DNA of 64,000 nucleotides from Capsulimonas sp. (GTDB lineage Bacteria; Armatimonadota; Armatimonadia; Armatimonadales; Capsulimonadaceae). Shown piece after piece: positions 39,519 through 61,200 of the stretch. The notes under the pieces were generated by a model. That model made no database searches, was not told the DNA's origin, and saw only the letters and a list, made by a program, of their open reading frames with translations. Location: NCBI RefSeq assembly GCF_039928515.1, contig NZ_JBDSSZ010000114.1; one strand, written 5' to 3'. A program made the translations under genes and the position numbers. Within the stretch, counting starts at the first letter, position 1; every line of letters starts with the position of its first letter.

Positions 39519-39536
39519 GCGCTGGCCGTAATAGAT

Positions 39537-39578
39537 GCAAAACAGGCTCGGACGATCACTCGTCCGAGCCTGTTTTGC
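39537..39578. terminator. Bidirectional terminator between convergent genes
   Basis: GCAAAACAGGCTCGGACGA-tcac-TCGTCCGAGCCTGTTTTGC. Confidence 0.8.
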
Positions 39579-39600
39579 TGCCGAGAAGCAGTTCCGTCGC

Positions 39601-43653: not shown

Positions 43654-43840
43654 AACCACGTTCCGTAATCGGATTTTTCATCCAGGCGGCGTGAAGACTT
43701 CGCACTCCACGCCGCCCTGATTTCAGCTCTCCCCTTCCCTCGTTTCTTACATCCCAATTTGCCTCGACCAAGGTGAACCTCTCGATTTGCCGGTGAGATA
43801 CCGAAAATAGATTAACCTTACCAGGAGATCTAAATTTTCT

Positions 43841-44725
43841 ATGACGATCCAATCGATGAAAACTTTCGTTATCGCGGGCGCGGCGCTTGCGTTCGCCACT
43901 TCCGCGCACGCACAGGCGACGCGCACCTGGGTCTCGGGCGTCGGCGATGACGTCAACCCGTGCAGTCGGACCGCCCCCTGCAAGACATTCGCGGGAGCCA
44001 TCTCCAAGACCGCCGCGGGCGGTGAGATCGACACACTCGATCCCGGCGGCTATGGAACCGTCACTATCACCAAGTCGATCACCATTGACGGCGGCGGATC
44101 GCTGTCCAGCATTCTGTTCTCAGGCACGAACGGCGTGATCGTCAATGCGGCCTCGACGGATACCGTGACGCTGCGTAATCTGTCGTTCGACGGCGGCGGC
44201 ACGGGCCTGAACGGCATTCGCTACATTGCCGGCGGCGCGCTAAACGTGCAGAAATGTGATATTTTTTCGTTCAGTAACTATGGAATTGACGTGTCGCTGA
44301 CCGCCGCCGGCAAGGTGACGATCAAGGATACGACGATTACGGGCGGCGCCCGTGGCGTGAGCGCCATCACGACTGCCGGAAACCTCTTCGTGTCCGGCGA
44401 CAATGTCACCGTTAATAACGCCTATGTTGGCATCGACCTGGGATACGGATACGGACAGTTCACGAACTCGATGGTCACAAAGTGCGGAACTGTCGGTCTT
44501 CTGGGTGAGGGCGGCTTCCTGACGTTCAGCAATGGTGTCATCAGCAGCTGCGGAACCGCCGCGCGCGTCTACAACCCCGCCACGATTCGTCTGTCCAACG
44601 ACGATCTTTTGGACAACGGCCTGAACTATGGGTATACGGGCGCAGGCAAAATCGCCTCCGCCGGAAATAACCATGTGGCTGGAGGAGGCGTTGCAACGCC
44701 GAACGCGACAATGACCACGCAGTAA
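43841..44725 (+). CDS. Secreted right-handed beta-helix protein, copy 2 (near-identical paralog)
   Basis: Collinear with copy 1, with long identical DNA tracts. Confidence 0.8.
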   Translation: MTIQSMKTFVIAGAALAFATSAHAQATRTWVSGVGDDVNPCSRTAPCKTFAGAISKTAAGGEIDTLDPGGYGTVTITKSITIDGGGSLSSILFSGTNGVIVNAASTDTVTLRNLSFDGGGTGLNGIRYIAGGALNVQKCDIFSFSNYGIDVSLTAAGKVTIKDTTITGGARGVSAITTAGNLFVSGDNVTVNNAYVGIDLGYGYGQFTNSMVTKCGTVGLLGEGGFLTFSNGVISSCGTAARVYNPATIRLSNDDLLDNGLNYGYTGAGKIASAGNNHVAGGGVATPNATMTTQ

Positions 44726-44755
44726 AATTTCGGCGACCTTTCGAAACAAATCCTG

Positions 44756-44807
44756 AGCGCCCCCGATCCTCTTCACATGCATGAAGATGATCGGGGGCGC
44801 TTTTTTT
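44756..44807 (+). terminator. Intrinsic terminator
   Basis: AGCGCCCCCGATC...GATCGGGGGCGCT followed by a T-tract. Confidence 0.75.
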
Positions 44808-44855
44808 ACGACTTTGCATTGCGCCGACATACGGCATTCAGGGTCATAATAAGTT

Positions 44856-45719
44856 ATGACATCATTGTTAGCGACAAAGCAGATACGGATCACCGCAGTC
44901 AGCCTCGCGTCCAATGCTGGCGCGCGTAACATCGACCCCGTGGAGGATCTGGTCGCCGTCGAGGAGCCGCTGGAAATCCAGGTTTCGTCTATTCACGGCC
45001 CGGCGCGTACGGTTTCCATCACGATGCGTACGCCCGGAAACGACGCCGAGCTTGCCGCCGGGTTTCTCTGGGGTGAAGGGGCGTTTCAAAGAACCGATCA
45101 AATTCTTGGAAGCCAGGCCGAGCAAAATGTCATCCGAACGATTGTCGCTCCGGAAGTCCTGGATGGCCTAGAACGGCTGAGCAGAAATTTCTATACGACT
45201 TCCAGCTGCGGTGTCTGCGGCAAAACCTCGCTGACGGCCCTGCGGCAGCGCACAAAGTTTACAATTAATCCTGGTTCGCCAATAGTCGAGGCTGATATCC
45301 TGACCGGCATTCCGGACACAGTAAGAAAAGTCCAGAAGACGTTCAATCAAACCGGCGGGCTTCATGGCGCGGCGCTGCTCGAAGCCGATGGAACCCTGAT
45401 CGCGCTGCGCGAGGATGTCGGGCGGCATAACGCTGTGGATAAGCTCATTGGCGCGTGTGTCCTCAACCATCAGCTGCCTCTCTCGGGTGCTATTCTTTTT
45501 CTGAGCGGTCGCGCGAGCTTTGAGCTTCTGCAAAAGGCGTACATGGCGGGCATCCCGATTGTCGCGGCGGTCGGCGCCCCCTCCAGTCTCGCCGTTGAGA
45601 TGGCGGAAGAAGCAGGAATCACGCTGATCGGATTTCTTCGCGGCCAGCGTTTCAATATTTACACTAGCGCGGAGCGAGTGCGCCTCACATCGTCAATGGA
45701 GACAAAAATTGAGCGATAA
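44856..45719 (+). CDS. fdhD: Formate dehydrogenase accessory sulfurtransferase FdhD
   Basis: VEEPLEI, TMRTPG.D.ELAAGF, SSCGVCG, TGGLH, EDVGRHNAVDK. Confidence 0.95.
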   Translation: MTSLLATKQIRITAVSLASNAGARNIDPVEDLVAVEEPLEIQVSSIHGPARTVSITMRTPGNDAELAAGFLWGEGAFQRTDQILGSQAEQNVIRTIVAPEVLDGLERLSRNFYTTSSCGVCGKTSLTALRQRTKFTINPGSPIVEADILTGIPDTVRKVQKTFNQTGGLHGAALLEADGTLIALREDVGRHNAVDKLIGACVLNHQLPLSGAILFLSGRASFELLQKAYMAGIPIVAAVGAPSSLAVEMAEEAGITLIGFLRGQRFNIYTSAERVRLTSSMETKIER

Positions 45720-48045
45720 CCCAAATCTAACCAATCATGGAGAAGTACAGCCGGAAGGGCCGCGAGCCGAGCCCACCGCCGGCCTCAGCGCGCCGAAAAC
45801 CGCAGCTGGCGGCGTGCCCGCCCTGGTGTCGTCACTGCGCCACATTCACGAAGAAACAGGCGTCGTGCGCGGCGCGCGGACGCTCCTGCGCATGAATCAG
45901 ACCGATGGGTTCGACTGCCCAGGCTGCGCGTGGCCCGATCCCGAAAACAAGCGCTCGCACGCTGAGTTCTGCGAAAACGGCGTCAAAGCCGTTGCAGAGG
46001 AGGCAACGACCAAACGAATCACAACAGAGTTCTTTCAAAAATGGAGCGTCGCCGATCTTTCGGAACAAACCGATCACTGGCTGGGCAAGCAAGGCCGCCT
46101 CACCCACCCCATGGTTCTTCGTCCCGGGGCGACACACTATGAACCGGTCTCGTGGGATAACGCATTCCAAATCATCGCCTCGGAACTGAACGCGCTGGCG
46201 TCCCCGAATGAGGCGCTCTTTTATACCTCCGGCCGCACCAGCAATGAAGCCGCATTTCTCTATCAGCTGTTCGTACGGCAGTTCGGCACAAACAATCTCC
46301 CCGACTGCTCCAACATGTGCCATGAGTCCAGCGGCGCGGCCCTCAGCGAAACGCTCGGCGTTGGTAAAGGCACGGTCACGCTGGAAGATCTGGAGATGGC
46401 GGATACGATCTTCGTGATCGGACAAAACCCCGGCACCAACCACCCGCGCATGCTCAGCGCCCTCCAGCACGCGGTTCGCAACGGCTGTACGGTTGTCAGC
46501 GTCAACCCATTGCCCGAAGCCGGCCTGATACGCTTCCAGCACCCTCAAGAACCCATCGGGATGCTGGCGGGCGGCACCCCGCTCTCCAAGCTCTTCCTGC
46601 AAGTGCGGATCAACGGCGACGTCGCGCTGCTCAAAGGAATCCTCAAAGAGATGCTGGAAGCCGAAGACAGATCTCCCGGGTCGGTCTTCGACCATGAGTT
46701 TATCGCGGCGCATACCAGCGGCTATGACGAGTTCGCAGCCGATATACGCCTGGAATCTTGGGAAGCAATCGTCGAGCAAAGCGGCATTGGTCGCGAGCAG
46801 ATCCGTGAGGCGGCGGAAACCGCGATGCGCGCCGAGCGGATGATCTGCTGCTGGGCGATGGGGCTGACGCAGCACAAAAACGCCGTCGCCAACATTCAGG
46901 AAATCGTCAACCTGCTGCTTCTGCGCGGCCAGATCGGCAAGCCCGGCGCCGGCGTATGCCCCGTGCGCGGCCATAGCAATGTCCAAGGTGATCGGACAAT
47001 GGGCATTTGGGAAAAGATGCCCGACCGATTTCTGGACGCCCTGGGACGCGAATTCGATTTCGAGCCGCCACGCCGCCATGGCCTGGACGCCGTCGAATCG
47101 ATCAAAGCAATGCACGCCGGCAAGGCGCGTGTCTTCATCGGCATGGGCGGAAATTTTCTCTCCGCGACACCGGATACAACCTATACAGCGACGGCGCTAA
47201 GCCAATGCGATTTGACCGTTCAAATCTCCACCAAGCTCAATCGCAGTCATCTCATTACGGGAAAAACGGCGCTAATCCTTCCCTGTCTAGGCCGCACTGA
47301 GGCTGACATCCAGTCGTCCGGGCCGCAGTTTGTCACCGTAGAAGATTCCATGAGCGTCGTTCATCGTTCACGCGGCGCGCTCGCGCCGGCGTCCGAGCAT
47401 CTTCGCAGCGAGCCGGCCATCGTCGCCGGCATGGCGAGCGCCACGCTTGGCGCCCGATCCAAAGTTCAATGGGACCAATTGGCGTCAAACTACGATCTCA
47501 TCCGCGATCACGTCTCTCATGTCATTCCCGGCTTCCACGACTATAACGAACGCGTCCGCGAAACCAACGGCTTTCGGCTGCCGAACGGCGCACGCGAGCG
47601 CAGCTTCGTCACATCCACACAAAAAGCGCGCTTCACGGTCCACCCCATCCCTGAAACAAAGCTGGCGCCAGACGAGCTTCTCATGATGACCATTCGGAGC
47701 CATGACCAGTACAACACCACAATCTACGGCTTGGATGACCGGTACCGGGGCATCCACAACGGCCGCCGTGTTGTGCTTCTGAACGCCCACGATATCGAAG
47801 AATTAGGCTTCCAGCCTCAGGAATGGGTCGATCTGATCGGCCGCTTCCAAGGAGAAGAACGCGTCGCCGAACGATTTCTGATCGTCCCCTACGACATCCC
47901 CCGCCGATGCGCCGCCACATACTTCCCCGAAGCCAATGTCCTGGTCCCCATCAACAGCGTTGCCGACAAAAGCAACACACCCACATCAAAGTCTGTTGTC
48001 ATCGCATTGCGGCGTTTGACTGCATCCGACGCAATGAACCCCTGA
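45709..48045 (+). CDS. FdhF/YdeP family molybdopterin oxidoreductase
   Basis: NQTDGFDCPGCAWPD, EFCENG.KA, YTSGRTSNE, NNLPDCSNMCHE, RSHDQYNTTIYG. Confidence 0.93.
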   Translation: MSDNPNLTNHGEVQPEGPRAEPTAGLSAPKTAAGGVPALVSSLRHIHEETGVVRGARTLLRMNQTDGFDCPGCAWPDPENKRSHAEFCENGVKAVAEEATTKRITTEFFQKWSVADLSEQTDHWLGKQGRLTHPMVLRPGATHYEPVSWDNAFQIIASELNALASPNEALFYTSGRTSNEAAFLYQLFVRQFGTNNLPDCSNMCHESSGAALSETLGVGKGTVTLEDLEMADTIFVIGQNPGTNHPRMLSALQHAVRNGCTVVSVNPLPEAGLIRFQHPQEPIGMLAGGTPLSKLFLQVRINGDVALLKGILKEMLEAEDRSPGSVFDHEFIAAHTSGYDEFAADIRLESWEAIVEQSGIGREQIREAAETAMRAERMICCWAMGLTQHKNAVANIQEIVNLLLLRGQIGKPGAGVCPVRGHSNVQGDRTMGIWEKMPDRFLDALGREFDFEPPRRHGLDAVESIKAMHAGKARVFIGMGGNFLSATPDTTYTATALSQCDLTVQISTKLNRSHLITGKTALILPCLGRTEADIQSSGPQFVTVEDSMSVVHRSRGALAPASEHLRSEPAIVAGMASATLGARSKVQWDQLASNYDLIRDHVSHVIPGFHDYNERVRETNGFRLPNGARERSFVTSTQKARFTVHPIPETKLAPDELLMMTIRSHDQYNTTIYGLDDRYRGIHNGRRVVLLNAHDIEELGFQPQEWVDLIGRFQGEERVAERFLIVPYDIPRRCAATYFPEANVLVPINSVADKSNTPTSKSVVIALRRLTASDAMNP

Positions 48046-48056
48046 ACGAAATCTTT

Positions 48057-48107
48057 ATGGGACCAATCGCTTGACAATGGTCCCATTCTGCTATATAATG
48101 GAGCCGT
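48057..48107 (+). promoter_or_regulatory. Consensus sigma70 promoter of the GH76 cluster covered by three operator-like boxes
   Basis: TTGACA (48071-76), 17 nt, TATAAT (48094-99); boxes ATGGGACCAA 48057, ATGGTCCCAT 48077, ATGGAGCCGT 48098. Confidence 0.85.
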
Positions 48108-48302
48108 AACGAAGTATGATACAGGAACACGATGACAGCATTGTTAGTGCTTAGTCGCTTAAAAAGTATTATTGCTAGAATAGCAATACAATTAACAATA
48201 ATGGTCAAGACAATTTCCGTCCTGGAGGTAATTAAACAACCACAGAAGACATTGTTTAATAGTTAAAATCGCATCACAGCTACGAAATCAGAGAGGATTA
48301 AC

Positions 48303-49841
48303 ATGAAGAAAAATAAGGGTTCAATGATCGGAGTACTGGCCAAAGTCGGCCTGATGGCGTTACTTGTTGGTCTGGGAGGCGCATCGCCCCAGCAGGCGTC
48401 GGCCATAGGATCCGGCGACGCCGACACGATGTTCAATGGCTTTAACAACGCATTTTTGGTTAATGGCAACTATTACAAGACAAGCATCAACGGCAGCACC
48501 TTTGACGGCGGCTGGACCGGCGCGCTAGACATCATGGTGGCCGAGGATGCTTACGAGCGGACCGGCAGCGCCGCGCACAAGAATCTCGTCAACAACCTCT
48601 GCACTACCTTCCTCCAGAAGTTCCCGCCCGGATACACCTGGGACGGCTACAACGACGACATCGGCTGGATGTCCATCATGCTGGCCCGCGGATATCTGAT
48701 CACCGGCAACGCCAACCTGCTTACCCAGGCGCGAACGTCCTGCTTCGACATGGCGTGGGCGCGCGGATGGGACACCCAGTACAACGGCGGCGGCATTTGG
48801 GAACAGCAGCCCAACATGACCCCGGCCGGCCAGAAGATCGACAAGGAAGCTCTCTCCAACGACAGCCTGGGCAAGGCCGCCTGCCTGATCTACATGGGCA
48901 ACCACGATCAATGGTATCTGGACCGCGCTACTCAGATCTACGCCTGGGTGCGCAGCCACCTCTACAATACAAGCAACGGCCAAGTTTACAACGGCGTTGA
49001 CCGCAACAACGTCGTCGATACCAGCAGGAATGTCTACAACCAGGGCACTTTTGCGGATTACGCCAATTACCTCTATCAGATCACCGGCAACGTCATGTAT
49101 TACGACGACGCCAAAAGGGCGATCGACTACGTCAAAGGTCCTTCCTGGTACAACGGCGGCGTCATGACCGGGGGCGGCACCAATACCTGGTCGGACGAGT
49201 ACGCCCGAGGCCTGGGACATTTCTGTCGGGATAACCGCCAGTGGGGCGCATACCTCAGCTGGGCGCAGGCCAACGCCAACGCCGCCTGGAGCCGTCGCCG
49301 CACCGACTACAACATCTGCTGGAGCGACTTCAGCCAGCAGACCCCGAACGATAATAATATCATTACGAATCGGTTTTGCGACGCGGCGGCGTGGCTGCAG
49401 TACACCCCAGCCACCATGCCCAGCAACGTCTGGGGACGGCACACGATCGTCGGCTTGAACAACATGGCGGTGGACACGCTCGGCCTGATCGACAATAACA
49501 AAGTCGTGGGCCTCTGGGGCTTGAACTACGGCCAGACCCAGATTTGGAACTTCACCCAGAATGCGGATACCTCCTGGAACATCGTCAGCCAATCCAGCTG
49601 GAAAGCGCTGGATGTTCCAGGCGGCTCCACCACCAACGGAACGCAAATCATTCAGTGGGCTCCTACCCGCGACACGAACCAGCGGTGGTGGGTAGACATG
49701 CAGTCTGACGGCAGTTACAAGATCTGGAACCAGCAAAGCAGCCTATCTTTGGATAGCTCCAGCACTACGACCAACGGACAGGCGCTGATCGAATGGGGCT
49801 GGAACGCCAACGCGCCCCAGCAGCGCTGGCTGCTGCAATAA
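48303..49841 (+). CDS. Secreted GH76 (alpha-1,6-mannanase-like) with ricin-B lectin, copy A1
   Basis: Catalytic GYNDDIGW, GGGIWE, K.ALSN, VYNQG, ARGL; C-terminal QxW repeats. Confidence 0.88.
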   Translation: MKKNKGSMIGVLAKVGLMALLVGLGGASPQQASAIGSGDADTMFNGFNNAFLVNGNYYKTSINGSTFDGGWTGALDIMVAEDAYERTGSAAHKNLVNNLCTTFLQKFPPGYTWDGYNDDIGWMSIMLARGYLITGNANLLTQARTSCFDMAWARGWDTQYNGGGIWEQQPNMTPAGQKIDKEALSNDSLGKAACLIYMGNHDQWYLDRATQIYAWVRSHLYNTSNGQVYNGVDRNNVVDTSRNVYNQGTFADYANYLYQITGNVMYYDDAKRAIDYVKGPSWYNGGVMTGGGTNTWSDEYARGLGHFCRDNRQWGAYLSWAQANANAAWSRRRTDYNICWSDFSQQTPNDNNIITNRFCDAAAWLQYTPATMPSNVWGRHTIVGLNNMAVDTLGLIDNNKVVGLWGLNYGQTQIWNFTQNADTSWNIVSQSSWKALDVPGGSTTNGTQIIQWAPTRDTNQRWWVDMQSDGSYKIWNQQSSLSLDSSSTTTNGQALIEWGWNANAPQQRWLLQ

Positions 49842-49939
49842 ATCATTGGAGAAAGGCCGCTGTCTGATAAAGGCAGCGGCCGTGTTTCCGTATGATTCTA
49901 TCGCTATTATCACAATACATTGACAAGGAGATCATGAAC

Positions 49940-51490
49940 ATGAAGAAGATACCATGCGCGATCAAGGCAAAGATCGTGGGCCAAATTGGGCTGCTGGCTT
50001 TGCTTGTTGGCCTGAGCTGTAGTATGCCGCAGCAGGCGGCGGCGATCGGCTCCGGCGACGCCGATTCATCCTTCAACGCATTCAACAATGCCTTTCTGGT
50101 AAATTCCGGCGGCCAGACCTATTACAAAGCGGCGCTGAACAACGCAAATGCGGACGGCACCTGGGCGGCCTCGCTGGACATTCTCGTGGCGGAGGACGCT
50201 TACGAGCGCACCGGTAGCGCCGCGCACAAGACGCTGGTGAATAACCTCTGCACGACCTGGCTCCAGAAGACTCCGCCGCCGTGGGACTGGGACGGCTGGA
50301 ATGACGATATTGGCTGGTTTTCACTGGCGCTGGTCCGTGGCTATCAGCAGACGGGCAACGCCAACTTTCTCACCCAGGCCCGCTATGGCTTCGATATGGC
50401 CTGGGCTCGCGGCTGGGATACCCAATACAATGGCGGCGGAATCTGGGAGCAGCAGCCCGAAAAAACTCCGGCTGGGCAAGCCATCAATAAAGAAGCTCTG
50501 TCCAACGACAGTCTGGGGAAAGTGGCTTGCTTGATCTACCAAAGCAATCACGATCAATGGTATCTGGACCGGGCGACCCAGATCTACGACTGGGTCTGGC
50601 ATCACCTTTACAACCCGAGCAACGGCCAGGTTTACGCCAATGTCGATCGTAACGGAGTGGTCAACACCGGCACAGCCGTCTATAACCAGGGGACGTTTGT
50701 GGACTTCGCCAATTACATGTACCAGATCACGGGAAACGTGAACTACTACAACGACGCCAAGCGAGCCATCGATTACGTCAAGAACAACATGACGACGAAC
50801 GGGATCATCAGCAACAACGCCGGTTACCTGAACACCTGGGCGGATGAGTTTGCGCGTGGCCTGGGACATTTCTGCCGGGACAACCGCCAATGGGGAACTT
50901 ACTATCCATGGATGGTGCAGAACGCGGACGCCATCATGAACACCCGGCGCACCGATCTCAACATCACCTGGAACGGCTGGACTCAGCAGACTCCCAACGA
51001 CAATACCTTGATCGCGAATAAGTTCGCCAGCGCAGTGGCCTGGCTGCAATTCACTCCGGCGACCCAGCCCAACAACATTGCCGGTACGCACGCGATTGTC
51101 AGCAAGCAGAACGGCATTGCGATCGATAATGGCGGCAGCGCCGCCAACGGGGGCGGCGTGATTCAGTGGGGTTTGAACTATGGCCAGAACCAGAAGTGGA
51201 ACTTCACCCAGAACGCGGATACCTCCTGGAACATCGTCAGTCAGTCGAGCTGGAAGGCTTTGGATAATCCCGGCGGTTCCGCGACCAACGGTACACAGAT
51301 GGTGCAGTGGACTCCGACCCGCGATACGAACCAGCGCTGGTGGGTGGACGTGCAGTCCGACGGCTCGTACAAGATCTGGAACCAGCAAAGCAGCCTGGCG
51401 CTGGATAACTCCAGCTCCAATACCAATGGACAGGCGCTGATCGAATGGATTTGGAACGGTGGAACCCAGCAGCGCTGGCTTCTGCAGTAA
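49940..51490 (+). CDS. Secreted GH76 with ricin-B lectin, copy A2
   Basis: GWNDDIGW, GGGIWE, VYNQG; AAGGAG RBS; closely similar to A1. Confidence 0.88.
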   Translation: MKKIPCAIKAKIVGQIGLLALLVGLSCSMPQQAAAIGSGDADSSFNAFNNAFLVNSGGQTYYKAALNNANADGTWAASLDILVAEDAYERTGSAAHKTLVNNLCTTWLQKTPPPWDWDGWNDDIGWFSLALVRGYQQTGNANFLTQARYGFDMAWARGWDTQYNGGGIWEQQPEKTPAGQAINKEALSNDSLGKVACLIYQSNHDQWYLDRATQIYDWVWHHLYNPSNGQVYANVDRNGVVNTGTAVYNQGTFVDFANYMYQITGNVNYYNDAKRAIDYVKNNMTTNGIISNNAGYLNTWADEFARGLGHFCRDNRQWGTYYPWMVQNADAIMNTRRTDLNITWNGWTQQTPNDNTLIANKFASAVAWLQFTPATQPNNIAGTHAIVSKQNGIAIDNGGSAANGGGVIQWGLNYGQNQKWNFTQNADTSWNIVSQSSWKALDNPGGSATNGTQMVQWTPTRDTNQRWWVDVQSDGSYKIWNQQSSLALDNSSSNTNGQALIEWIWNGGTQQRWLLQ

Positions 51491-51527
51491 GCCCCCAAGA
51501 AACGACTAGGATTTGGAGAACACCACG

Positions 51528-53066
51528 ATGAACACCCGCTCGACACGCAAAAAAATGACTTCTCACTGGACAAAGCGCATCGGCTTTGCAGCATTACTGG
51601 GGCTTTCGATTACGCTCGCCGGCGCGCCTGGCGCCCACGCGCAAAACAGCGCCAACGCCGACACCGTATATAACGGCTGGCTCAATGCGTACTTGATCCG
51701 CTCCGGCGGACAGACCTACTTCTGCAACAGCCTCACCGATCGTTCCCGCGCCTTTATGTGGGGTCAGGCTTATATGATCACCGGCGTGGAGGACGCCTAC
51801 GATAAGAATAAAGCGGCGGATCGAAAGCAGCTCGTCACCGATCTTCTGAACACCTTCATCGCGAATGAGATCACGCCGGACACGAACAAAAACCTGGCGT
51901 GGGACAGCTGGAACGACGATCTGGCGTGGGCGATTATCGCGCTGATCCGAGGCTATCAAATTACCGGCAATACCGCTTACCGAGACGCCGCCGTAACAAA
52001 CTGGAACGTCGTTTACAACCGGGGCTGGGATAATACATTCGGCGGCGGGATTTGGGAGAATATGGATAACGTCCCCGCCGGCGGCAAAGGCGGGCTGAGC
52101 AACTGGCCGATGGTGATCGCCGGCGGCCTCATCTATGATTCCACCGGCGACGCCACGATCTTGAGCAAAAGCCAGTCCATCTACGCCTGGGCGCGGTCGC
52201 ACGCCTACGATCCCAACAACGGCCGAGTCTACGAAGGCTGGAACTCCACCGGCATCTACGGCGACGATAACGCCTATAACAGCGGGCTTCTTGTCAACTC
52301 GGCCAACGCGCTCTATAAGATCACGCGTACGACTCAGTATTACAACGACGCCGTAACGGCCGCCGCTCATGTGATCAACAAATACCCCATTTTGAATGAA
52401 GACCATCCCGCGAATGGGGACTTTGGAGGCGATCAGTTCTACCGGGGCCTGAGCCTCTTCGCCCGCCAAAATAATCTCTGGAACACCTACTGGCAATGGC
52501 TGGAGAACAACGCCGCTTCCGCCTGGAATAACCGGCGAACGGATTCCAATGTCTCCTGGAACAACTTCACTTCGCCCACCACGACCGGCAATCTCCGCGC
52601 GATGGAAGCCGAAGGCTCGGTTGTCGTGCAGGCGGTCTCTCAGATCAATCCCATCAGCGGCGTTCACACCATCTTCAACCAGGCGAACGGCTTAGTGATT
52701 GACAACGCCAGCACCAACACCCAGGGCGCGGGCGTCATCCAATGGGGCTGGAACAGCGGCAGCGCGCAGAAGTGGATCTTCACCCAGAATTCCGATAGCT
52801 CCTGGAGTATTGTCAATAAATATAGCGGCCAGGGGCTGGATAACGCCAACAGCACATCGAACGGAACACAAATAATCCAGTGGGGCGCGAGTAGCGGCAA
52901 CAACAACCAGCGCTGGTGGGTGGACCAGCAGTCCGACGGCTCCTACAAGATCTGGAACAAAGCCAATAGTTTGGCGCTCGACAACAACAATATGAATACG
53001 AACGCCGCTTCGCTGATCCAGTGGGGCTGGAACGGCGGCGCTAACCAGAGATGGTATCTCAAATAA
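51528..53066 (+). CDS. Secreted GH76 with ricin-B lectin, copy B1
   Basis: FMWGQAYMI, SWNDDLAW, GGGIWE, AYNSG. Confidence 0.88.
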   Translation: MNTRSTRKKMTSHWTKRIGFAALLGLSITLAGAPGAHAQNSANADTVYNGWLNAYLIRSGGQTYFCNSLTDRSRAFMWGQAYMITGVEDAYDKNKAADRKQLVTDLLNTFIANEITPDTNKNLAWDSWNDDLAWAIIALIRGYQITGNTAYRDAAVTNWNVVYNRGWDNTFGGGIWENMDNVPAGGKGGLSNWPMVIAGGLIYDSTGDATILSKSQSIYAWARSHAYDPNNGRVYEGWNSTGIYGDDNAYNSGLLVNSANALYKITRTTQYYNDAVTAAAHVINKYPILNEDHPANGDFGGDQFYRGLSLFARQNNLWNTYWQWLENNAASAWNNRRTDSNVSWNNFTSPTTTGNLRAMEAEGSVVVQAVSQINPISGVHTIFNQANGLVIDNASTNTQGAGVIQWGWNSGSAQKWIFTQNSDSSWSIVNKYSGQGLDNANSTSNGTQIIQWGASSGNNNQRWWVDQQSDGSYKIWNKANSLALDNNNMNTNAASLIQWGWNGGANQRWYLK

Positions 53067-53116
53067 ACGGCGATCGCCGTTTTTCTTTTGTTCACTTCAC
53101 CCTTGGGAGACTAAAA

Positions 53117-54259
53117 ATGACTGTGTCCGCATATAAAAAAAAGAACGCTTTCTCTTTCGCCTCGGTCTGCCTGGGCTCCCTGATGATGCTGACAGGGATT
53201 TCCTCGGCGGCGCAAAGCGCGGGATTGCGCCTGATGCCGATTGGCGACTCGATCACGTCGGGATTCCAAAGCACCACCAACAACGGCTACCGGGGACCGC
53301 TCTGGAGCACACTGAAAAACCAGGGCAACGCCATCGACTTCGTCGGCGCCATTCGGGATGGCGTGATGTTCGATCCCGACCATGAAGGCCATTCCGGCAA
53401 GCGAATCGATGAGGTCGCCGCACTGATCAACGGTCCATTAGCGACTTATCAGCCCAATCTCGTCACGCTGCATATCGGCACCAACGATCTGGGGCAGAAC
53501 TATAACGTTTCCACCGCGCCCAACAGACTGGCTTCACTGATCGATCAGATCTTCAACACCGACCCCGGCGTCACTATCGTGGTGGCTCAGCTGATCTGCA
53601 ATAAGGACGCAACGGTTCAATCGCGCATCAACTCCTATAACAGCCAGATCCCCGGCATCGTGCAGGCGCGGGCGAACGCCGGCAAGCATATCACCATGGT
53701 CAGCATGAGTTCGCTCAACACGGGAGACTTGTACGACAGCACACATCCCAACGACGGCGGCTATCAGAAGATGGCCAACGTCTGGGCTGGCGGCGTCCAG
53801 CAGGTCATCGCCAACGGCTGGGTCTCCAACATCGATTTCGCCGGCTACTTTGAGATCAAAAACGTCTACAGCGGACTCTCGCTGGATGTCTCCGGCGGCT
53901 CCACCACCAACGGCGGAATCGTCATTCAGTATCCCTACGGCGGCGGCTCCAACCAGTTGTGGAACTTCATCCCTACCAGCAGCGGCTACTACCAGATCAA
54001 GAATGCGTACAGCGGCCTGGATATCAATGTCTCCGGCGCCCGCACCGACAACGGCGCGCCTATTGTCCAATGGCAATTCGGCAACCAGGGCAACGACCAG
54101 TGGCTGCCCACCCGTCAGAGCGACGGCTCGTATGTGTTTACCAACCGGCACAGCGGCCTGGTTCTGGACAATCCTGGCGGAACAACGCAGGGCGCGCAGC
54201 TTGACCAATGGGGTTCGAACCCAGGAACCAACCAAAGGTTCTATGTGGGCGCCCATTAG
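53117..54259 (+). CDS. Secreted SGNH/GDSL esterase (CE3-like) with ricin-B lectin
   Basis: MPIGDSIT, HEGHSG, HIGTND, DSTHPN; ricin QxW repeats. Confidence 0.9.
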   Translation: MTVSAYKKKNAFSFASVCLGSLMMLTGISSAAQSAGLRLMPIGDSITSGFQSTTNNGYRGPLWSTLKNQGNAIDFVGAIRDGVMFDPDHEGHSGKRIDEVAALINGPLATYQPNLVTLHIGTNDLGQNYNVSTAPNRLASLIDQIFNTDPGVTIVVAQLICNKDATVQSRINSYNSQIPGIVQARANAGKHITMVSMSSLNTGDLYDSTHPNDGGYQKMANVWAGGVQQVIANGWVSNIDFAGYFEIKNVYSGLSLDVSGGSTTNGGIVIQYPYGGGSNQLWNFIPTSSGYYQIKNAYSGLDINVSGARTDNGAPIVQWQFGNQGNDQWLPTRQSDGSYVFTNRHSGLVLDNPGGTTQGAQLDQWGSNPGTNQRFYVGAH

Positions 54260-54364
54260 CCCTGAGGCCCCTTCGCACGACGCAACCGCCTGGGTGAAAA
54301 ATTTCTTCCGCCCAGGCGGTTGCGCGCGCCTTGGATGCGGATCCACTCACTACAAAGGAACACC

Positions 54365-55855
54365 ATGAAAACAACGAAGACGAATCTTATGACGAGCTTG
54401 GTGACTACGCTCCTCACCGCAGCAACCCTCCTTCCCGCCCCCACGGCTCACGCCCAAAACGCCGCAAACGCCGACGCTGCTTATAACAGCTTTCTATCCG
54501 CCTACCTGGTGCGATCTGGTGGTCAGACTTACTTCGTCGATGGCTTGAACAAACGCGACAAGGCGTTCTTCTGGGGTCAATGCTACATGATCACCATGGT
54601 GGAGGATGCCTACGATCGGTCTCCAACACCGGCCAACAAACAGCTCGTCATCGATCTGGTCAATTCTCAGTTCAATCAGGATACCTACAACTGGTCGTGG
54701 GACGGCTGGAACGATGACGTGGAATGGGGAATCATCGCGGCGATTCGCGCTTACGAAATCACTGGCAACACCACTTACCGAGACGTCGCCGCCAATAACT
54801 GGAACATGGTTTGGAATCGCGGATGGGACGGCGTCGTGGGCGGAGGCGTCTGGGAAAACGGGGATAAGTTCAGCAAATGCGCTTTGAGCAATGACCCGAT
54901 GATCATCTCCGGCTGCTTGCTCTATCAAGCCACGGGCGACGCCACCTATCTGAACAAGTGCACACAGCAAATCTATCCCTGGATGCGAAGCCATGTCTTT
55001 GATCCTTCCACTGGACAGGTTAACGAAGGAGTGACGAACACTGGCGCCCTTCAATCGTCCCGCAATGTTTATAACAGCGGGGCCTTCATCCTTGCGGCCA
55101 ACGCTCTCTACAAAGCCACGGGGAACCAGCAGTATTATAACGACGCGAAACTCGCGGCCGATTTTATCGTCAACTCCACGCCTACTCTTTATCACAATGG
55201 CGCGGACGGATCTTGGGCGGACCAGTTCGTGCGCGGCTTGAGCAGATTCGCGCGTGAAAATAACCTCTGGGGCACATACAGCGGCTGGCTGAATAATCAA
55301 GCGGCCGCTGCATGGAATCATCGACGCACCGATAAAAATCTCACGGATAACAATTGGCTGGCAAATACTCCTGGCGGCGAGACATACGCCATGAACGCCC
55401 TCAGCGCGGTGGTGGTCCAGCTGGTTACTCAGATTAATCCTCTGACCGGCTCCCATGTGATTGTGAGCAAAGTTAGCGGCAAGGCGGTGGAGAACGGCGG
55501 CAGCATGGCCAATAACGCCGGGATCATCCAATGGGGTAAGGGCGGCCAGCCATGGCAGACCTGGAACTTCACACAGAACTCGGATACCTCGTGGAACATC
55601 GTCAACGCGTACAGCACACAGGGGCTGGATACAGGCGGATCCACGACGAACGGAACGCAGCTCATCCAGTGGCCCGCAGACAGCGCCAACAACAACCAGC
55701 GCTGGTGGGTGGACGGGCAGTCCGACGGCTCCTACAAAATCTGGAGCAAGGCCAACAGCAGATCCCTGGATAATTCCGGATCCACCGTGGACGGGTTCAA
55801 AATTATTCTATGGGATTGGAATGGCGGCAACCAGCAGCGATTCCTCCTTCAGTAA
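54365..55855 (+). CDS. Secreted GH76 with ricin-B lectin, copy B2
   Basis: FFWGQCYMI, GWNDDVEW, GGGVWE, KCALSN, VYNSG. Confidence 0.88.
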   Translation: MKTTKTNLMTSLVTTLLTAATLLPAPTAHAQNAANADAAYNSFLSAYLVRSGGQTYFVDGLNKRDKAFFWGQCYMITMVEDAYDRSPTPANKQLVIDLVNSQFNQDTYNWSWDGWNDDVEWGIIAAIRAYEITGNTTYRDVAANNWNMVWNRGWDGVVGGGVWENGDKFSKCALSNDPMIISGCLLYQATGDATYLNKCTQQIYPWMRSHVFDPSTGQVNEGVTNTGALQSSRNVYNSGAFILAANALYKATGNQQYYNDAKLAADFIVNSTPTLYHNGADGSWADQFVRGLSRFARENNLWGTYSGWLNNQAAAAWNHRRTDKNLTDNNWLANTPGGETYAMNALSAVVVQLVTQINPLTGSHVIVSKVSGKAVENGGSMANNAGIIQWGKGGQPWQTWNFTQNSDTSWNIVNAYSTQGLDTGGSTTNGTQLIQWPADSANNNQRWWVDGQSDGSYKIWSKANSRSLDNSGSTVDGFKIILWDWNGGNQQRFLLQ

Positions 55856-55863
55856 ATTCCGTA

Positions 55864-55906
55864 CAAATCAGCCCCGCAAGCGACAATCGCTTGCGGGGCT
55901 GATTTG
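55864..55906. terminator. Terminator hairpin between the convergent GH76 cluster and GH43
   Basis: CAAATCAGCCCCGCAAGCGA-caa-TCGCTTGCGGGGCTGATTTG. Confidence 0.75.
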
Positions 55907-55952
55907 CGCGTGAAGCCTGAAGGCAACCGCGCAATCCCAATTCCGTGGTGAC

Positions 55953-57491
55953 TCACAAAGCGTGGTAACGGAAATCGCTGAAGCGCGCTTCGCCGGTCGC
56001 GCTCGCCGCCAGCGCGATGCGCAGAGCCTGAAATCCCCCCAGCTTATTGACGTTGAAGTCGGACGCGTCGAAATCCTTCACCAAGCTTTGCCAGTGACGC
56101 CCGTCGTCGCTGGCCAATACCTCGATACGGTGGCGACGGTTCACGATCTTCAGGTGCGCCGCGCTCCCCGTCCAGGGCCGATCCGCCAGAGTTTCCTTGG
56201 GACCGTAAACGCGCAGACGCCCGCTGCCCAGTTCGGCGAACAGCCAGTGGTCGGGGTTATAAAACAGCCCCAGCGCCGCGCCGCAGCCCCCCTTCGGCGA
56301 CGCCACGACCTGCGCTTCATAGCTGGCGTCGCGCGCCATCACGGTGAGCGGCGAGCTGTGCCCGGGCGTGTCGCCCTTGGCGCCCACCGTGAGCGCGCCG
56401 TGTCCTGTATGGAAACGGCTCATGTCGGCTTCGCTCCAAGCCCCCCAGGTCGCCTTGAGCGCTGGCGCGCGGAAGTCGTCAGACAGCGAAAGCATCGGCT
56501 TCTGGGCGACGCCCATCGGCGCGGGCATCGGCTGGTCGCGCCGCGAGCCAAGCGGCGCCTGCGGCCAGCCGTCGTCCGTCCATTCGATCGGCTCCAGCAG
56601 CGTGTGACGCCCCAGCGACTTAAAGCCGTTTCGGTAGCCGTGGTAAACGAAGTACCAGCGGCCATCGGGCGTGTCCACGAGCGTTCCGTGCCCCACTGAC
56701 CACCAGGTCTCATCCTCGCTGTACGTGTGGATGAGCGGGTTGTGGGGCGAATTTTCCCACGGGCCTAGCGGCGAACGGGAGCGAGCCACGACGGCCATGT
56801 GGCTGGTGGGCGGTCCGCTGGTGCCGCCTTCGGCGCAGATCAGGTAGTAGAAGTCGCCGCGCCGGGTCAGCTTGGGGCTCTCCAGCCAGAACCCTTCCGT
56901 CTTCCATTCCGCCGGGAACTGCCAGCCGTTATAAACCTGCTTTTTTTCTCCGACTGCGGACAAGCCGTCGTCGCTCAGCTCCACCATGTGGCCGCCCGCC
57001 GTATAAAGATAACGTGTCCCGTCCGGCCCAACGATGTGGCCGGGATCGATATCGTCGACCTTCAGTTCGATCGGCTCGCTCCATGGTCCGCTCGGATGTT
57101 CCGCATGGACGACAAAAATGCCTCCCATTGGGAAATAGATATAATAGTGTCCCTTGTGTTCGACAAGATCAGGCGCCCATACCTCCGCCCTTTCGTAGGA
57201 ATGGCTGAGCGCCTTCGAAATCGGGGTCCAGTTCACCAGATCGCGCGAGTGCCAGACCACTAGGCCTGGCGCATAGCGGTAGCACGTGTGGGTGAAATAG
57301 AAATCCTTGCCGACGCGCAGGATCGTAGGATCCGCGTAGTCGCCAGCAAACAGCGGATTTTGAAATTGGGCGGCTTTTCGCTCACGCGGGGCGCGTCCCC
57401 ATGCTGCGGGCAAATGACTCGCCAACATCGTCGTTGACGCTCCCGCCGCCAATTGCAGCAGCGCGCGGCGAGATAATTTCACTTCATTCAA
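55953..57491 (-). CDS. Tat-exported GH43 glycoside hydrolase with C-terminal beta-sandwich
   Basis: LSRRALL twin-arginine signal; NPL..GDYADPTILR, WAPD, IDPG, ESPKL, GHG.LV. Confidence 0.9.
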   Translation of the reverse strand: MNEVKLSRRALLQLAAGASTTMLASHLPAAWGRAPRERKAAQFQNPLFAGDYADPTILRVGKDFYFTHTCYRYAPGLVVWHSRDLVNWTPISKALSHSYERAEVWAPDLVEHKGHYYIYFPMGGIFVVHAEHPSGPWSEPIELKVDDIDPGHIVGPDGTRYLYTAGGHMVELSDDGLSAVGEKKQVYNGWQFPAEWKTEGFWLESPKLTRRGDFYYLICAEGGTSGPPTSHMAVVARSRSPLGPWENSPHNPLIHTYSEDETWWSVGHGTLVDTPDGRWYFVYHGYRNGFKSLGRHTLLEPIEWTDDGWPQAPLGSRRDQPMPAPMGVAQKPMLSLSDDFRAPALKATWGAWSEADMSRFHTGHGALTVGAKGDTPGHSSPLTVMARDASYEAQVVASPKGGCGAALGLFYNPDHWLFAELGSGRLRVYGPKETLADRPWTGSAAHLKIVNRRHRIEVLASDDGRHWQSLVKDFDASDFNVNKLGGFQALRIALAASATGEARFSDFRYHAL

Positions 57492-57613
57492 ATGGATCGC
57501 TCACTTTCCTGGGCGCCGGGCAGCAATTGCCGGACTTGACGGCATTCTTCGTGGAATGCAGACGTCCTGATACGCCTGTAACTTCTGAGTGTCTTAGATC
57601 TCTGAGACTAGGT

Positions 57614-57677
57614 AATTCTAACATGTAAAGGGACCATAGTCAACAATGGAGCCATTAATGAATTTTCATGGAGCCGT
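57614..57677 (-). promoter_or_regulatory. sigma70 promoter of GH43 with three operator-like boxes
   Basis: Minus strand TTGACT-ATGGTCCCTTTACATGT (17 nt)-TAGAAT; further boxes ATGGAGCCAT 57646 and ATGGAGCCGT 57668. Confidence 0.8.
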
Positions 57678-57734
57678 TTCATGATACCTTTATGGTGTAT
57701 TTAAGATTATCGGCGTAGAGGAGATGAGAGGCGG

Positions 57735-58334
57735 CAGATATCCAAAGCCTGACAGTCAATGGTCAAAGCTCCAACTCCCCATGGCTTCGCTTCGCAAGCA
57801 TCGCCTATGGCGCGACGCTCGCCTACACCATGGGAACCAACGCGAACACCACTTGGAGGTCGAACCTTTCCCTCGCCCCGCCTTCCTACACCGATGGATG
57901 TCCACGCCGCTCACACAGAACTATTTCTGGTGGACCAGTCTGGAAGCGGGCGAATATCAGCCGACCTGGACCAACAACGTCGATATCTCATCTCCCGGAG
58001 GCAATCTCTCCCACGTCGGCCCCGTGCTGAGCGGCGGATCGGGACCGGAGATGGGAGTTCGCACCGAGAGCAGCCAAAGCGGCAAATCCTCGCTTCTGTA
58101 CTCCGGGAGTTCTCAACGCGGCGCGGCGGTGCACGCCTATCTGAAGGCGTTCGCCTCCACCCCAACGCGCAAAGCGGATCGCTGGCGCTGGATACCTGGA
58201 ACTACGTCTCAGTCGATCTGACCCCGCTGGCCGGCAAGACCGTCAACCGCGTCGACTTCGGCTACGACAACCCTAACAGCACCGGCGGGTATCGCGGCTA
58301 TGTGGACGACATCGCCTTCACAACGCCCGGCTGA
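57735..58334 (+). pseudogene. 3' remnant of a GH92 (alpha-1,2-mannosidase-like) gene, split over three frames
   Basis: IQSLTVNGQSSNSPWL...GATLAYTMGTNANTTW...APPSY (GH92 C-terminus), then TSLEAGEYQPTWTN... and LHPNAQ...WNYVSVDL..LAGKTV.RV.FGYDNP...YRGYVDDI in other frames. Confidence 0.7.
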
Positions 58335-58439
58335 TACGCTCGTTACGAGAGTACATCCCCGAACACAAAACCCCATCGGCCCATAGAGCCGTCGGGGATT
58401 TGTGTTCCGTCAACAAAGAGAATAACGACGCGGACGCCA

Positions 58440-58799
58440 TCATCGTTTCCGATAAAACACACCATTCCCCACAGAATTGATTGCATTGGGTGTATATGAC
58501 ATTTCAGTTACGTGCTGAAATTCATGGTTGCTCATCTCATACAAAAGGATGGTCTTGCCCTTGATCTTATAAGCGCCCGCGACGTGTCGGCGGCTTGTCC
58601 CAAAGCGGCCGACGTGGCCATAAAGCAGCGTTCCATTCGGGCGAAGTATGATAGACTGTACGCCCTTAGTTCGATCTCGACGGATATACACCTGGTCACT
58701 CTTTTGTAGGGGACGCGAACGAGCGAAGGCGGCGACGGCAATACCGGCGAAAGCCGGAATAAGCAGAAGCAGACTAACAATCTTTAAAGGTTTGAGCAT
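58440..58799 (-). CDS. Small basic exported hypothetical protein
   Basis: 119 aa with signal-peptide-like N-terminus. Confidence 0.5.
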   Translation of the reverse strand: MLKPLKIVSLLLLIPAFAGIAVAAFARSRPLQKSDQVYIRRDRTKGVQSIILRPNGTLLYGHVGRFGTSRRHVAGAYKIKGKTILLYEMSNHEFQHVTEMSYTPNAINSVGNGVFYRKR

Positions 58800-59013
58800 G
58801 CCAAAATCATTATGGTTCGCGTTCTAACATTCCTCCTTGAGCGCCACGCTGATTTGCGGGCGATGCATCTCTCCATCGCGGGAAAGCCAAATTGTGTGGT
58901 AAGATCATGCAGTTGCGATTGCGCTGGCGTTCTGCGCCATTTGCCCCGCTCCCCGGTAACAAATCGGCGCGTGGGGTGTTATAATAGTAGAACGCTCAGG
59001 AAAGACGGTTTGT

Positions 59014-61200
59014 ATGGCAAAGAAATTAATCATCGTTGAGTCCCCCGCGAAGACGAAGACGCTCAAGGGGTTTCTCGGCGCGGACTATCAGGTTGAGGCG
59101 AGCATGGGGCATGTGCGTGACCTCCCGGAGAAGAAGCTGTCGATCGATATCGAGAACGACTTTGCGCCCACCTATCAGATCATCCCCGAGCGCAAGGATG
59201 TTGTCGCCAAATTAAAGGCCGCCGCCAAGGGAGCCGATGAAGTCTACCTGGCGAGCGACCCGGACCGTGAAGGGGAAGCGATCTCCTGGCACCTCAAGGA
59301 AGCGCTCGGCCTCAAGGATCCAAAGCGTATCCAGTTCAACGAGATCACCAAGACGGCGGTTCTGGCGGCGCTGCAGAACTATCGTACGATCGATATGGAC
59401 CGCGTCAACGCCCAGCAGGCGCGGCGCGAACTGGACCGGATCGTGGGCTACAAGATCAGCCCGCTGCTCTGGCGCAAGGTCAAGAAGGGCCTGAGCGCCG
59501 GCCGCGTGCAGTCGGTCGCCGTTCGTCTCATTGCGGACCGCGAGCGGGAGATCCTGGCGTTCAATCCCGTCGAGTACTGGACGATCGGCGCGACGCTGAC
59601 TCCCGATACGGTGAAGAACAAGTTCGACGCCAATCTGACCGAGCGTGACAACAAGAAGATCGAAATTCCCGATCAAGCCACGAGCGACAAGATCCTGTCG
59701 GATCTGGACGGCGCCGAGTACCGTGTCAAGAAGGTCAAGAAGAGCGAGAAGCGACGCAACCCGTCCGCGCCCTTCATCACCAGTACGCTCCAGCAGGAAG
59801 CCTCGCGCAAGCTCGGCTTTAGCGCCAAGCGCACGATGATGGTCGCGCAGCAGCTCTACGAAGGTTTGGAAGTCGCCGGCGAAGGCCATGTCGGTTTGAT
59901 CACCTACATGCGTACTGACTCCACGCGTATCGCCGATGAAGCGCAGCAGTCGGCTCGCGCTTACATTGTCACGGAATACGGCGCGGCCTACGCTCCGGCG
60001 CAGACCAAACAATATAAGAAGGGCGGCTCCGCGCAGGACGCCCACGAAGCGATCCGCCCGACCAGCGTCGAGCGCGTTCCCGATCAGATCGCCAAGCTTC
60101 TGACCGCCGAGCAGGCCAAGCTGTACAAGCTGATCTGGCAGCGCTTCTTAGCGTCCCAGATGGCGCCCGCCGTGTTCGATGTCGTTACCGTAGACATCAG
60201 CGCACGGAACTATACGTTCCGCGCCACGGGATCGACCGTCAAGTTCGACGGCTTCCTGCGCGTTTACCGTGAAGGCAAGGACGATCCGAATCAGGTGGAT
60301 GACGAGGACAAGCAGCCCCTGCCGGCGCTCACCGACGAACAGCTGCTGAAACTGCTCCAGATCCTGCCTAAGCAGCACTTCACCGAGCCGCCCCCGCGCT
60401 ACACGGAAGCGACCCTGGTCAAGGCGCTGGAGGAAAAGGGCATCGGACGCCCGAGCACCTACGCCGCGATCATGTCCACGATTATCGACCGCAAGTACGT
60501 GGAGCTGGAGCAGAAGAAGTTCAAGCCCACCGAACTGGGATCAACCGTCAACGACCTGCTGGTGAAGCACTTCCCCAGCGTTCTGGACATCGCGTTCACC
60601 GCCGAGATGGAAACCAAGCTCGACGGCGTCGCCGAGGGCAAGGAAGATTGGGTCGCGATGATGCGCTCCTTCTACGGTCCGTTCGCCGAGAGCCTGGAAA
60701 AGGCCGGCGAGGAGATGGAGAAGGTCAAGATCGAGCCGAAGCTCGCCGGCATCGACTGCCCGAAATGCGGCAAGCCGATGGTGGTGCGCTCCAGCCGGTT
60801 CGGCGAGTTCGTTGGCTGCTCGGACTACCCCGAGTGCAAGACAATTGTCCGTCCCGAAGCCGAAAAGATCGACATTCCGTGCCCCAAGTGCGGCGGCGAG
60901 ATCGTCCAGAAGCGCAGCCGTAAGGGCGCCATCTTCTATGGCTGCAAAGAGTACCCGAAGTGCGACTTCGTGGCCTGGGGCAAGCCGACCGGACAAGACT
61001 GTCCGACATGCGGCTCGCCGGTGATGGAAAATACATATCGCGGGCGCGTGATTGGCGTCAAGTGCCACAACGCTGAATGCGATTACAAAGAGTCAACGAA
61101 GAAATCAAACGACGAAGCCGGTGAGAACGACGAAGCGGGAACGGAAGCCGAACCCGCGCAGACGCGCGAATTGGCGGGTGCGGCGCAAGGCAAAGGATAA
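59014..61200 (+). CDS. topA: DNA topoisomerase I
   Basis: LIIVESPAK, DPDREGEAI, SAGRVQS, ITYMRTDS, AQDAHEAIRPT, GIGRPSTYA, three C-terminal zinc ribbons. Confidence 0.98.
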   Translation: MAKKLIIVESPAKTKTLKGFLGADYQVEASMGHVRDLPEKKLSIDIENDFAPTYQIIPERKDVVAKLKAAAKGADEVYLASDPDREGEAISWHLKEALGLKDPKRIQFNEITKTAVLAALQNYRTIDMDRVNAQQARRELDRIVGYKISPLLWRKVKKGLSAGRVQSVAVRLIADREREILAFNPVEYWTIGATLTPDTVKNKFDANLTERDNKKIEIPDQATSDKILSDLDGAEYRVKKVKKSEKRRNPSAPFITSTLQQEASRKLGFSAKRTMMVAQQLYEGLEVAGEGHVGLITYMRTDSTRIADEAQQSARAYIVTEYGAAYAPAQTKQYKKGGSAQDAHEAIRPTSVERVPDQIAKLLTAEQAKLYKLIWQRFLASQMAPAVFDVVTVDISARNYTFRATGSTVKFDGFLRVYREGKDDPNQVDDEDKQPLPALTDEQLLKLLQILPKQHFTEPPPRYTEATLVKALEEKGIGRPSTYAAIMSTIIDRKYVELEQKKFKPTELGSTVNDLLVKHFPSVLDIAFTAEMETKLDGVAEGKEDWVAMMRSFYGPFAESLEKAGEEMEKVKIEPKLAGIDCPKCGKPMVVRSSRFGEFVGCSDYPECKTIVRPEAEKIDIPCPKCGGEIVQKRSRKGAIFYGCKEYPKCDFVAWGKPTGQDCPTCGSPVMENTYRGRVIGVKCHNAECDYKESTKKSNDEAGENDEAGTEAEPAQTRELAGAAQGKG

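Follow-up and report, generated by a model that had tools for sequence, protein, structure and literature searches.

Sugar-responsive repressors that act through several operators on carbohydrate-gene promoters are known, and the closest model for the system described here is AraR, a chimeric GntR/LacI repressor with several operators per promoter, cooperative binding and tight repression, whose operator pairs are bound cooperatively with DNA looping (PMC3592433, PMC1950556). Operators of the GntR family carry the signature GT-N(0-15)-AC (PMC1950556). AraR itself is one regulator with a 16-bp palindrome, ATTTGTACGTACAAAT, that contains GT...AC and occurs as one or two boxes per promoter. Here, we describe a 10-bp box, W-TGG-NN-CCA-W, that is repeated over two promoters of glycoside hydrolase (GH) genes in a 64,000-nucleotide stretch of bacterial DNA (hereafter the window), and we suggest that it is the operator of trans-acting repressors, probably AraR-like ones. 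The window lies on a 71-kb contig of a metagenome-assembled genome (MAG) from a rhizosphere study (G000, a 6.46-Mb draft), which we place in Verrucomicrobiota; the sequencing runs listed as containing this DNA are all DNA runs of one rhizosphere/root study, none being an RNA run. Coordinates without a contig prefix are window positions, and C-numbers denote contigs of G000.

The candidate binders share with AraR a GntR-type winged-helix N-terminus and a LacI/GalR-type sugar-binding C-terminus; in both systems, several palindromic operators overlap or flank carbohydrate-gene promoters, and the regulator’s own gene often carries a site. Unlike AraR, the binding predicted here involves a 10-bp box with invariant TGG/CCA and a free centre, arrays of three to five boxes, and 13 close paralogs. 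New relative to AraR are, then, the operator word, this stacking, a large paralog family that apparently shares the word, trans control without local regulators, and the phylum. The GT...AC signature of AraR-type operators is absent, the central positions of the ideal box ATGGTACCAT, where GT/AC would fall, being unconstrained. FadR/PdhR/ExuR-type GntR operators have TGGT/ACCA-like half-sites with the same bases as the ideal box, but these half-sites are separated by 2–3 more bases than here (FadR, the tightest solved arrangement, is still wider), and the effector domains of these regulators are all-helical, not LacI-like. In Bacteroidota, glycan-degrading sets such as GH76/GH92 mannan loci are controlled by SusR, hybrid two-component systems and extracytoplasmic function (ECF)/anti-sigma systems. 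Those regulators are usually encoded within each locus and are activators, whereas the promoters described here match the sigma-70 consensus, have no local regulator and are predicted to be repressed.

The geometry of the box has a precedent in the cop box TACANNTGTA, a 10-bp 4-NN-4 palindrome bound by winged-helix repressors at promoters (PMC7253601). The half-sites of CopY/BlaI/MecI-type operators (TACA-NN-TGTA beside a BlaI/CopY gene) differ from those found here, however, and these repressors respond to copper or beta-lactams, by proteolysis or metal binding, and not to sugars. The same genome also has TACCNNGGTA pairs within promoters at BlaI/BlaR1-like loci.

Literature searches for the motif, a related regulon and a GntR/DUF1559 link found nothing relevant. 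The control of large repertoires of carbohydrate-active enzymes (CAZymes) in Verrucomicrobiota is poorly known. The present analysis supplies an operator word, a set of target promoters (GH76/GH92 mannan genes, GH43, GH2, GH31, sugar transporters and DUF1559) and a short list of candidate repressors, and it ties the enigmatic DUF1559 genes of the Planctomycetota-Verrucomicrobiota to a predicted sugar-responsive control. Additionally, the tight promoter-operator pairs could become genetic tools for the phylum.

Boxes over the GH76 and GH43 promoters

A palindromised position weight matrix (PWM) built from 32 sites gives the consensus W-TGG-NN-CCA-W with about 12 bits per site. The genus is represented by three genomes, namely G000, G001 (complete, 7.6 Mb) and G002 (69% complete), and the features of the two promoter regions in the window are as follows.

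48057..48066, no strand: GH76 box 1, ATGGGACCAA, 5' of the -35 hexamer; PWM score 12.5
48071..48076, + strand: -35 hexamer TTGACA of the GH76 operon (promoter scan)
48077..48086: GH76 box 2, ATGGTCCCAT, the first 10 nt of the -35/-10 spacer; PWM score 14.9
48094..48099, + strand: -10 hexamer TATAAT of the GH76 operon (promoter scan)
48098..48107: GH76 box 3, ATGGAGCCGT, covering the last two -10 bases and the expected start site
48303..55855, + strand: GH76 target operon, five genes (Pfam)
55953..57491, - strand: GH43 gene (Pfam PF04616, E 3e-84), target of the second promoter
57643-57615, - strand: GH43 promoter TTGACT-17-TAGAAT, 10/12 consensus matches, with TG preceding the -10 hexamer
57628..57637: GH43 box AAGGGACCAT (minus strand ATGGTCCCTT), directly after the -35 hexamer
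57646..57655: GH43 box ATGGAGCCAT, just 5' of the -35 hexamer; PWM score 17.2; core identical in G001
57668..57677: box ATGGAGCCGT, distal for GH43, once the spacer box of a decayed + strand promoter
57740..57898, + strand: GH92-RicinB relic, matching residues 724-774 of a 916-aa G001 protein

Six boxes had been placed at these coordinates by an earlier note on this DNA, and direct reading of 47880-48300 and 57480-57840 confirmed every one. The same note had a box starting right after the -35 hexamer at both promoters, with 17-nt spacers, and the promoter scan bears this out: the GH76 promoter, TTGACA-17-TATAAT (48071-48099, + strand), matches the consensus at 12/12 positions and the GH43 promoter at 10/12, and in each one box begins at the first base past the -35 hexamer. 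The spacings between boxes are 20 and 21 bp at GH76 and 18 and 22 bp at GH43. The operon downstream of the first promoter encodes, in order, GH76-RicinB, GH76-RicinB, unknown-RicinB, GDSL esterase-RicinB and GH76-RicinB proteins (Pfam).

The region 5' of GH43 had been described as a divergent GH43/GH92 promoter, which holds for the GH43 side and, for the GH92 side, only historically. What remains of the GH92 gene is a 53-residue deletion relic (tblastn against the G001 protein, which Pfam assigns to GH92+RicinB: 53 aa aligned at 57% identity, E 5e-13), and no promoter on the + strand side passes the promoter scan: the hexamers at 57663-57690 have decayed to TTTTCA...TACCTT, where G001 has TTGACA-CTGGACCCAT...TACAAT. 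The GH43 upstream gap of G001 is genuinely divergent: its other side, TTGACA-CTGGACCCAT-7 nt-TACAAT plus a box, drives GH76-RicinB, GH76-RicinB and GH92-RicinB genes; compared with G001, the present genome has lost two GH76-RicinB genes and most of the GH92-RicinB gene. Judged by this comparison, the boxes at 57646 and 57668 are in part remnants of the lost operon’s control region, still located upstream of GH43. The GH92 protein of contig C28, also used as a query for the relic, gave no match to 57400-59100, whereas the G001 GH92-RicinB protein did match.

Arrays, neighbouring genes and conservation

Single boxes are no commoner than chance would have them. In the window, there are 33 (at most one mismatch) against 24.0 +/- 5.6 in shuffles; in crude intergenic DNA of the whole draft, 121 against 110 with one mismatch and 9 against 4 exact; and genome-wide, 656 PWM sites against 687 in shuffles (20 shuffles, with composition kept in 50-bp blocks). 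The picture changes with clustering. In crude intergenic DNA, 10 neighbouring TGGNNCCA pairs lie 8-45 bp apart where 0.35 would be expected, and nine loci have arrays of at least three sites, while shuffles gave 0.05 on average and never more than 1, an excess of about 180-fold. The earlier note had staked its proposal on the motif being rarer in random intergenic DNA; this fails for single boxes and clearly holds for arrays, and the note’s observation was itself one of arrays. Two of the nine arrays are those at GH76 and GH43. The arrays hold three to five boxes at spacings of mostly 16-29 bp (about half of them 20-24 bp), and when they are compared with one another, only the boxes and the promoter hexamers are alike, the spacings being different. 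The seven further arrays sit in AT-rich gaps.

C272: adjoins a 1272-aa GH2 gene
C7 (first array): between a GH2 gene and the divergent gene of a 404-aa regulator
C7 (second array): at two DUF1559/N-methyl genes, just after a second regulator
C58: adjoins a GH2 gene
C28: adjoins a GH92 gene and a divergent sugar transporter gene of the major facilitator superfamily
C286: adjoins a DUF1559-like gene
C146: one unannotated open reading frame (ORF) near a MarR-like gene, which starts 33 bp from a box

Almost all neighbours of the arrays are thus glycoside hydrolase, sugar-transport or DUF1559 genes, and the enrichment next to CAZyme genes for which the earlier note had proposed a search was indeed found, with arrays adjoining GH2, GH92, GH76, GH43 and sugar-transport genes. 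The position relative to the promoter recurs as well: at C272, C286 and C7 a box begins 0-1 nt after TTGACA, and TATAAT runs directly into GGNNCC at C272, C28, C150 and C298. The count of TATAAT-GGNNCC is 13, against 1-7 for scrambled controls. Two of these cases are single TATAAT-GGNNCCA promoters, of a GH31 gene with an ABC sugar-binding protein (C150) and of a periplasmic sugar-binding protein (C298).

Paired boxes of the pattern WTGGNNCCAW-N6-20-WTGGNNCCAW number 7, 7 and 6 in G000, G001 and G002, compared with 0-2 in 38 other genomes of the family and order; among about 300 genomes across the phylum, 0-2 is the count for most, and the few that reach 4-7 do so through GC-rich or tandem-repeat matches. 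The GH76 ortholog in G001 is preceded by TTGACA, ATGGATCCAT, 7 nt and TACACT, with two more boxes upstream, and the GH43 ortholog by TTGACT, ATGGTCCCAT, TATATGT and TAGAAT. The alignment of the GH43 promoter with G001 is highly conserved (non-box identity across the aligned GH43 region is 78%), and G001 also keeps the layout of TTGACA plus box at the C272-type GH2 promoter and at two DUF1559 promoters. Between G000 and G001 or G002, 19 orthologous box pairs are identical at 110/114 positions (96%) of the TGG/CCA core and at 15/38 positions (39%) of the central NN (Fisher P 2e-13), the core identity being somewhat inflated by the picking of pairs as boxes in both genomes, which tempers the case for an operator; aligned non-box DNA is 40-78% identical. 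A free centre within otherwise fixed boxes is the pattern expected of a protein-binding site. No match to the GH76 or GH43 promoter region was found in G002, a genome that is 69% complete, and the more distant GH76-RicinB loci L001-L007 (from other Verrucomicrobiota MAGs and Haloferula) have no box arrays upstream.

The predicted binder and its alternatives

The regulators beside the C7 arrays point to a candidate. The 404-aa C7 regulator has a GntR winged helix at residues 29-82 and a LacI-type sugar-binding domain at residues 166-400 (PF00392, E 3e-13, with PF13377 and PF00532), and a PDB sequence search gave LacI-family cores as its closest relatives of solved structure, among them the AraR C-terminal domain 3tb6 (E 2e-13). 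G000 encodes 13 close paralogs (48-75% identity) of this GntR-PBP type and about seven distant ones; within the genus, the clade has 11-14 close copies per genome compared with 0-5 elsewhere. Members of the clade include the proteins of C7:27149-28360 and C7:29071-30273, with G001 orthologs at 1060912 and 1062280. Among the 13 paralogs, the recognition helix V-H/D-R-R-V-V/I-R and the wing P-H/N-C-R-P are common almost residue for residue, and the linker after the wing is gap-rich and of variable length. The association of genes with boxes, counted as a box of PWM score at least 10 within 300 bp of gene ends, is as follows.

Close GntR-PBP paralogs, G000: box nearby at 5/13 (binomial P 2e-4 compared with controls)
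Close GntR-PBP paralogs, G001: box nearby at 6/11
Control ORFs, G000: box nearby at 4.6% of 3185
Full-length LacI-family genes: box nearby at 1/38
BlaI/CopY-like genes: box nearby at 1/10

Two more paralogs in G001 lie 2-2.5 kb from arrays, one of them within the same operon. In another genus (G017, with the same locus in G019), a perfect 30-bp palindrome consisting of two boxes 20 bp apart lies 42 bp after a paralog and is followed by TTGACA with a box and then by genes for DUF1559 and GH2; contig C7 carries this cassette too. Of 16 regulator loci taken from other genera, 6 also have boxes at or near a gene end, and others have none. Regulator genes are hence physically linked to boxes, as in an AraR-type regulon, and no regulator type other than GntR-PBP recurs beside the arrays.

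The GH76 and GH43 promoters themselves have no regulator close by. By Pfam, none is encoded within 35130-48045 (~13 kb upstream) or in the 6 kb downstream to the window end, and no paralog of the candidate clade occurs on the 71-kb contig, so that these two promoters would be controlled in trans, as the earlier note had rightly expected from the lack of a cognate regulator nearby.

A recurring cassette, conserved across two genera, groups DUF1559/N-methyl (pseudopilin-like) genes with one to three GntR-PBP regulators and with a GH2 gene that also encodes an F5/8 type C domain (G000:C7:19980-33980, L013; G001:1054000-1070000, L028; G017, L032), and this conservation suggests that DUF1559 proteins are part of units that respond to sugars. 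Upstream of most paralog genes stand extended -10 promoters (TGGTACAAT, TGnTATAAT) without a clear -35 hexamer (e.g. G000:C7:27100, C7:29030, C246:380 and C211:20300), unlike the consensus -35/-10 promoters of the presumed targets.

The box overlaps the core promoter (at GH76 and GH43, at C272, C28, C286 and C7, and in G001, G002 and G017), is found at several promoters in excess of chance, and is kept in their orthologs. A cis-regulatory role is well supported by these sequence comparisons, and the identity of the binder moderately so. We consider it likely, if far from assured, that the boxes are operators of sugar-responsive, trans-acting repressors, most plausibly of the AraR-like clade with a GntR winged helix-turn-helix and a LacI-type domain. 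Repressor-bound boxes would cover the -35/-10 spacer and the -10/+1 region, shutting out RNA polymerase, and extra boxes one or two helical turns away, among them the one or two sites that the arrays place upstream, would help occlusion; once a sugar or oligosaccharide occupied the C-terminal domain, the repressor would leave the DNA, and the GH76 operon, GH43, GH2, GH92, GH31, sugar transporters and DUF1559 proteins would be expressed. Because the promoters are at or near the sigma-70 consensus, they should need no activator, and promoter occlusion appears the most economical mechanism, since near-consensus promoters coincide with best-conserved boxes in the spacer and across -10/+1. The repressor-operator reading of the earlier note is thus favoured by operator-like placement, arrays, conservation and gene context, and its binder stands as a prediction.

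Several observations weigh against assigning the boxes to this clade. What is fixed in the box is TGG/CCA, whereas GT...AC is the signature quoted for operators of the GntR family, and the half-sites are 5 bp apart centre to centre, closer than in AraR or FadR complexes; 8 of the 13 paralogs in G000 have no nearby box, and several orthologs in other genera lack any; and no feature of the box tells one paralog’s targets from another’s. A single winged helix may occupy one box, and a dimer a pair of boxes, an idea with which the double-box palindrome of G017 and the variable-length linker are consistent. Where the earlier note had a single repressor that binds cooperatively, the evidence points to the clade of 13 paralogs, of which one, a few or many may use the box, because their recognition helices are nearly identical. 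A more speculative variant, to which we give rather little weight, is that the genus-specific burst of 13 paralogs reads one degenerate box and that promoters with three to five boxes are shared landing pads for several sugar-specific repressors in a combinatorial network (‘many repressors, one operator word’), in which case each winged helix would bind one box and the flexible linker would allow spacings of 16-29 bp.

Conceivably, though we think it unlikely, the binder is instead one global trans repressor of another family (a CopY/BlaI-like 4-NN-4 winged-helix protein or a MarR-like one), and the nearness of GntR-PBP genes reflects shared CAZyme neighbourhoods. Boxes at all loci are alike, without paralog-specific positions, as for one binder; their 10-bp, 4-NN-4 geometry is that of the cop box (PMC7253601); the MarR-like gene on C146 begins close to a box; and the eight paralogs without nearby boxes fit a foreign binder as well. 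Set against this, only 1/10 BlaI/CopY-like loci and 1/38 LacI loci lie near boxes, although LacI genes also sit in CAZyme loci, whereas the association with GntR-PBP genes is seen again in G001 and in a second genus, and no other regulator type recurs beside arrays. The box also differs from LacI-family operators, which are palindromes of 14-20 bp with, usually, a central CG, in being 10 bp long with a free centre. That the boxes bind an activator, or else a nucleoid-associated protein, by which transcription is raised or shaped, seems improbable to us: the sites at 48057, 57646 and 57668 do lie upstream of a -35 hexamer, the usual activator position, but the promoters already match the consensus (12/12 and 10/12), and it is in the spacer and across -10/+1, where a bound protein would hinder RNA polymerase, that the boxes are best conserved.

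It is very improbable that the boxes have no regulatory role and represent a duplicated promoter cassette, the end of a mobile element, a GGNNCC-like restriction/methylation target or chance. This explanation would suit the chance-level frequency of single boxes and the contig-end repeat (at least five copies) that carries TTGACA-A-ATGGGACCAC; it does not suit the excess of arrays, which resemble one another only in boxes and hexamers and differ in spacing, nor orthologous boxes that keep TGG/CCA while the centre drifts, nor conserved T and A bases that fall outside GGNNCC, nor the strong bias of neighbouring genes to carbohydrate genes. Among promoter-based readings, a sigma-54 (-24/-12) element was ruled out by the lack of GG-N10-GC, and taking TATAAT-GG as a discriminator leaves boxes upstream of -35 or inside the spacer unexplained.

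Further elements in the genome and in the leaders

The repeat just mentioned is an identical stretch of ~50 nt containing TTGACA-A-ATGGGACCAC-TATAG on at least five contigs (C106:6268, C169:96, C250:7457, C285:7241 and C304:24008), at contig ends in at least three cases (C169, C250 and C285). The stretch probably represents one end of an insertion element present in several copies, which happens to carry a box-like word after a -35-like hexamer.

Pairs of the reversed pattern WACCNNGGTW, used as a control, turned out to be a separate BlaI/BlaR1-type operator. TACC-NN-GGTA box pairs lie inside TTGACA/TATAAT promoters at G000:C58:7217-7252 and C182:10459-10494, at or just after gene pairs for a BlaI/CopY-like repressor and a BlaR1-like sensor; they are a separate, cop-box-like operator system, because of which the ‘control’ counts are raised in the genus. 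BlaI-like genes are, as tabulated, not associated with ATGGNNCCAT boxes.

For the GH16-RicinB gene of the window, a single good box, ATGGGACCAA, and a weak inverted partner to it (5298-5317) lie ~235 bp upstream of a TTGACA-17-TATAAT promoter (about 5505-5545). Since that promoter itself carries no box by the weight matrix, membership of the gene in the regulon is doubtful.

The 5' leader of the GH76 operon is ~200 nt long here and nearly 400 nt in G001. Its predicted RNA stability is no higher than that of shuffles (z 0.46), and an Rfam search of the window and the GH76 leader gave no family match. The leaders of the GH76 operon and the GH16-RicinB gene have in common a second palindrome-like element, (g)AAT-W-GC-R-AT-W-C(a), located at window positions 48171-48190 and 5586-5607, at about 1735-1835 (-) of L009 and at G000:C306:43503; examples are GAATTGCAATTC in G001 and the perfect palindrome ATTGCTA-GAA-TAGCAAT at 48171-48187. 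The 12-mer pattern of this element has 9 genomic occurrences, compared with 2-4 for scrambled versions, and the element may be a second operator inside the leaders.

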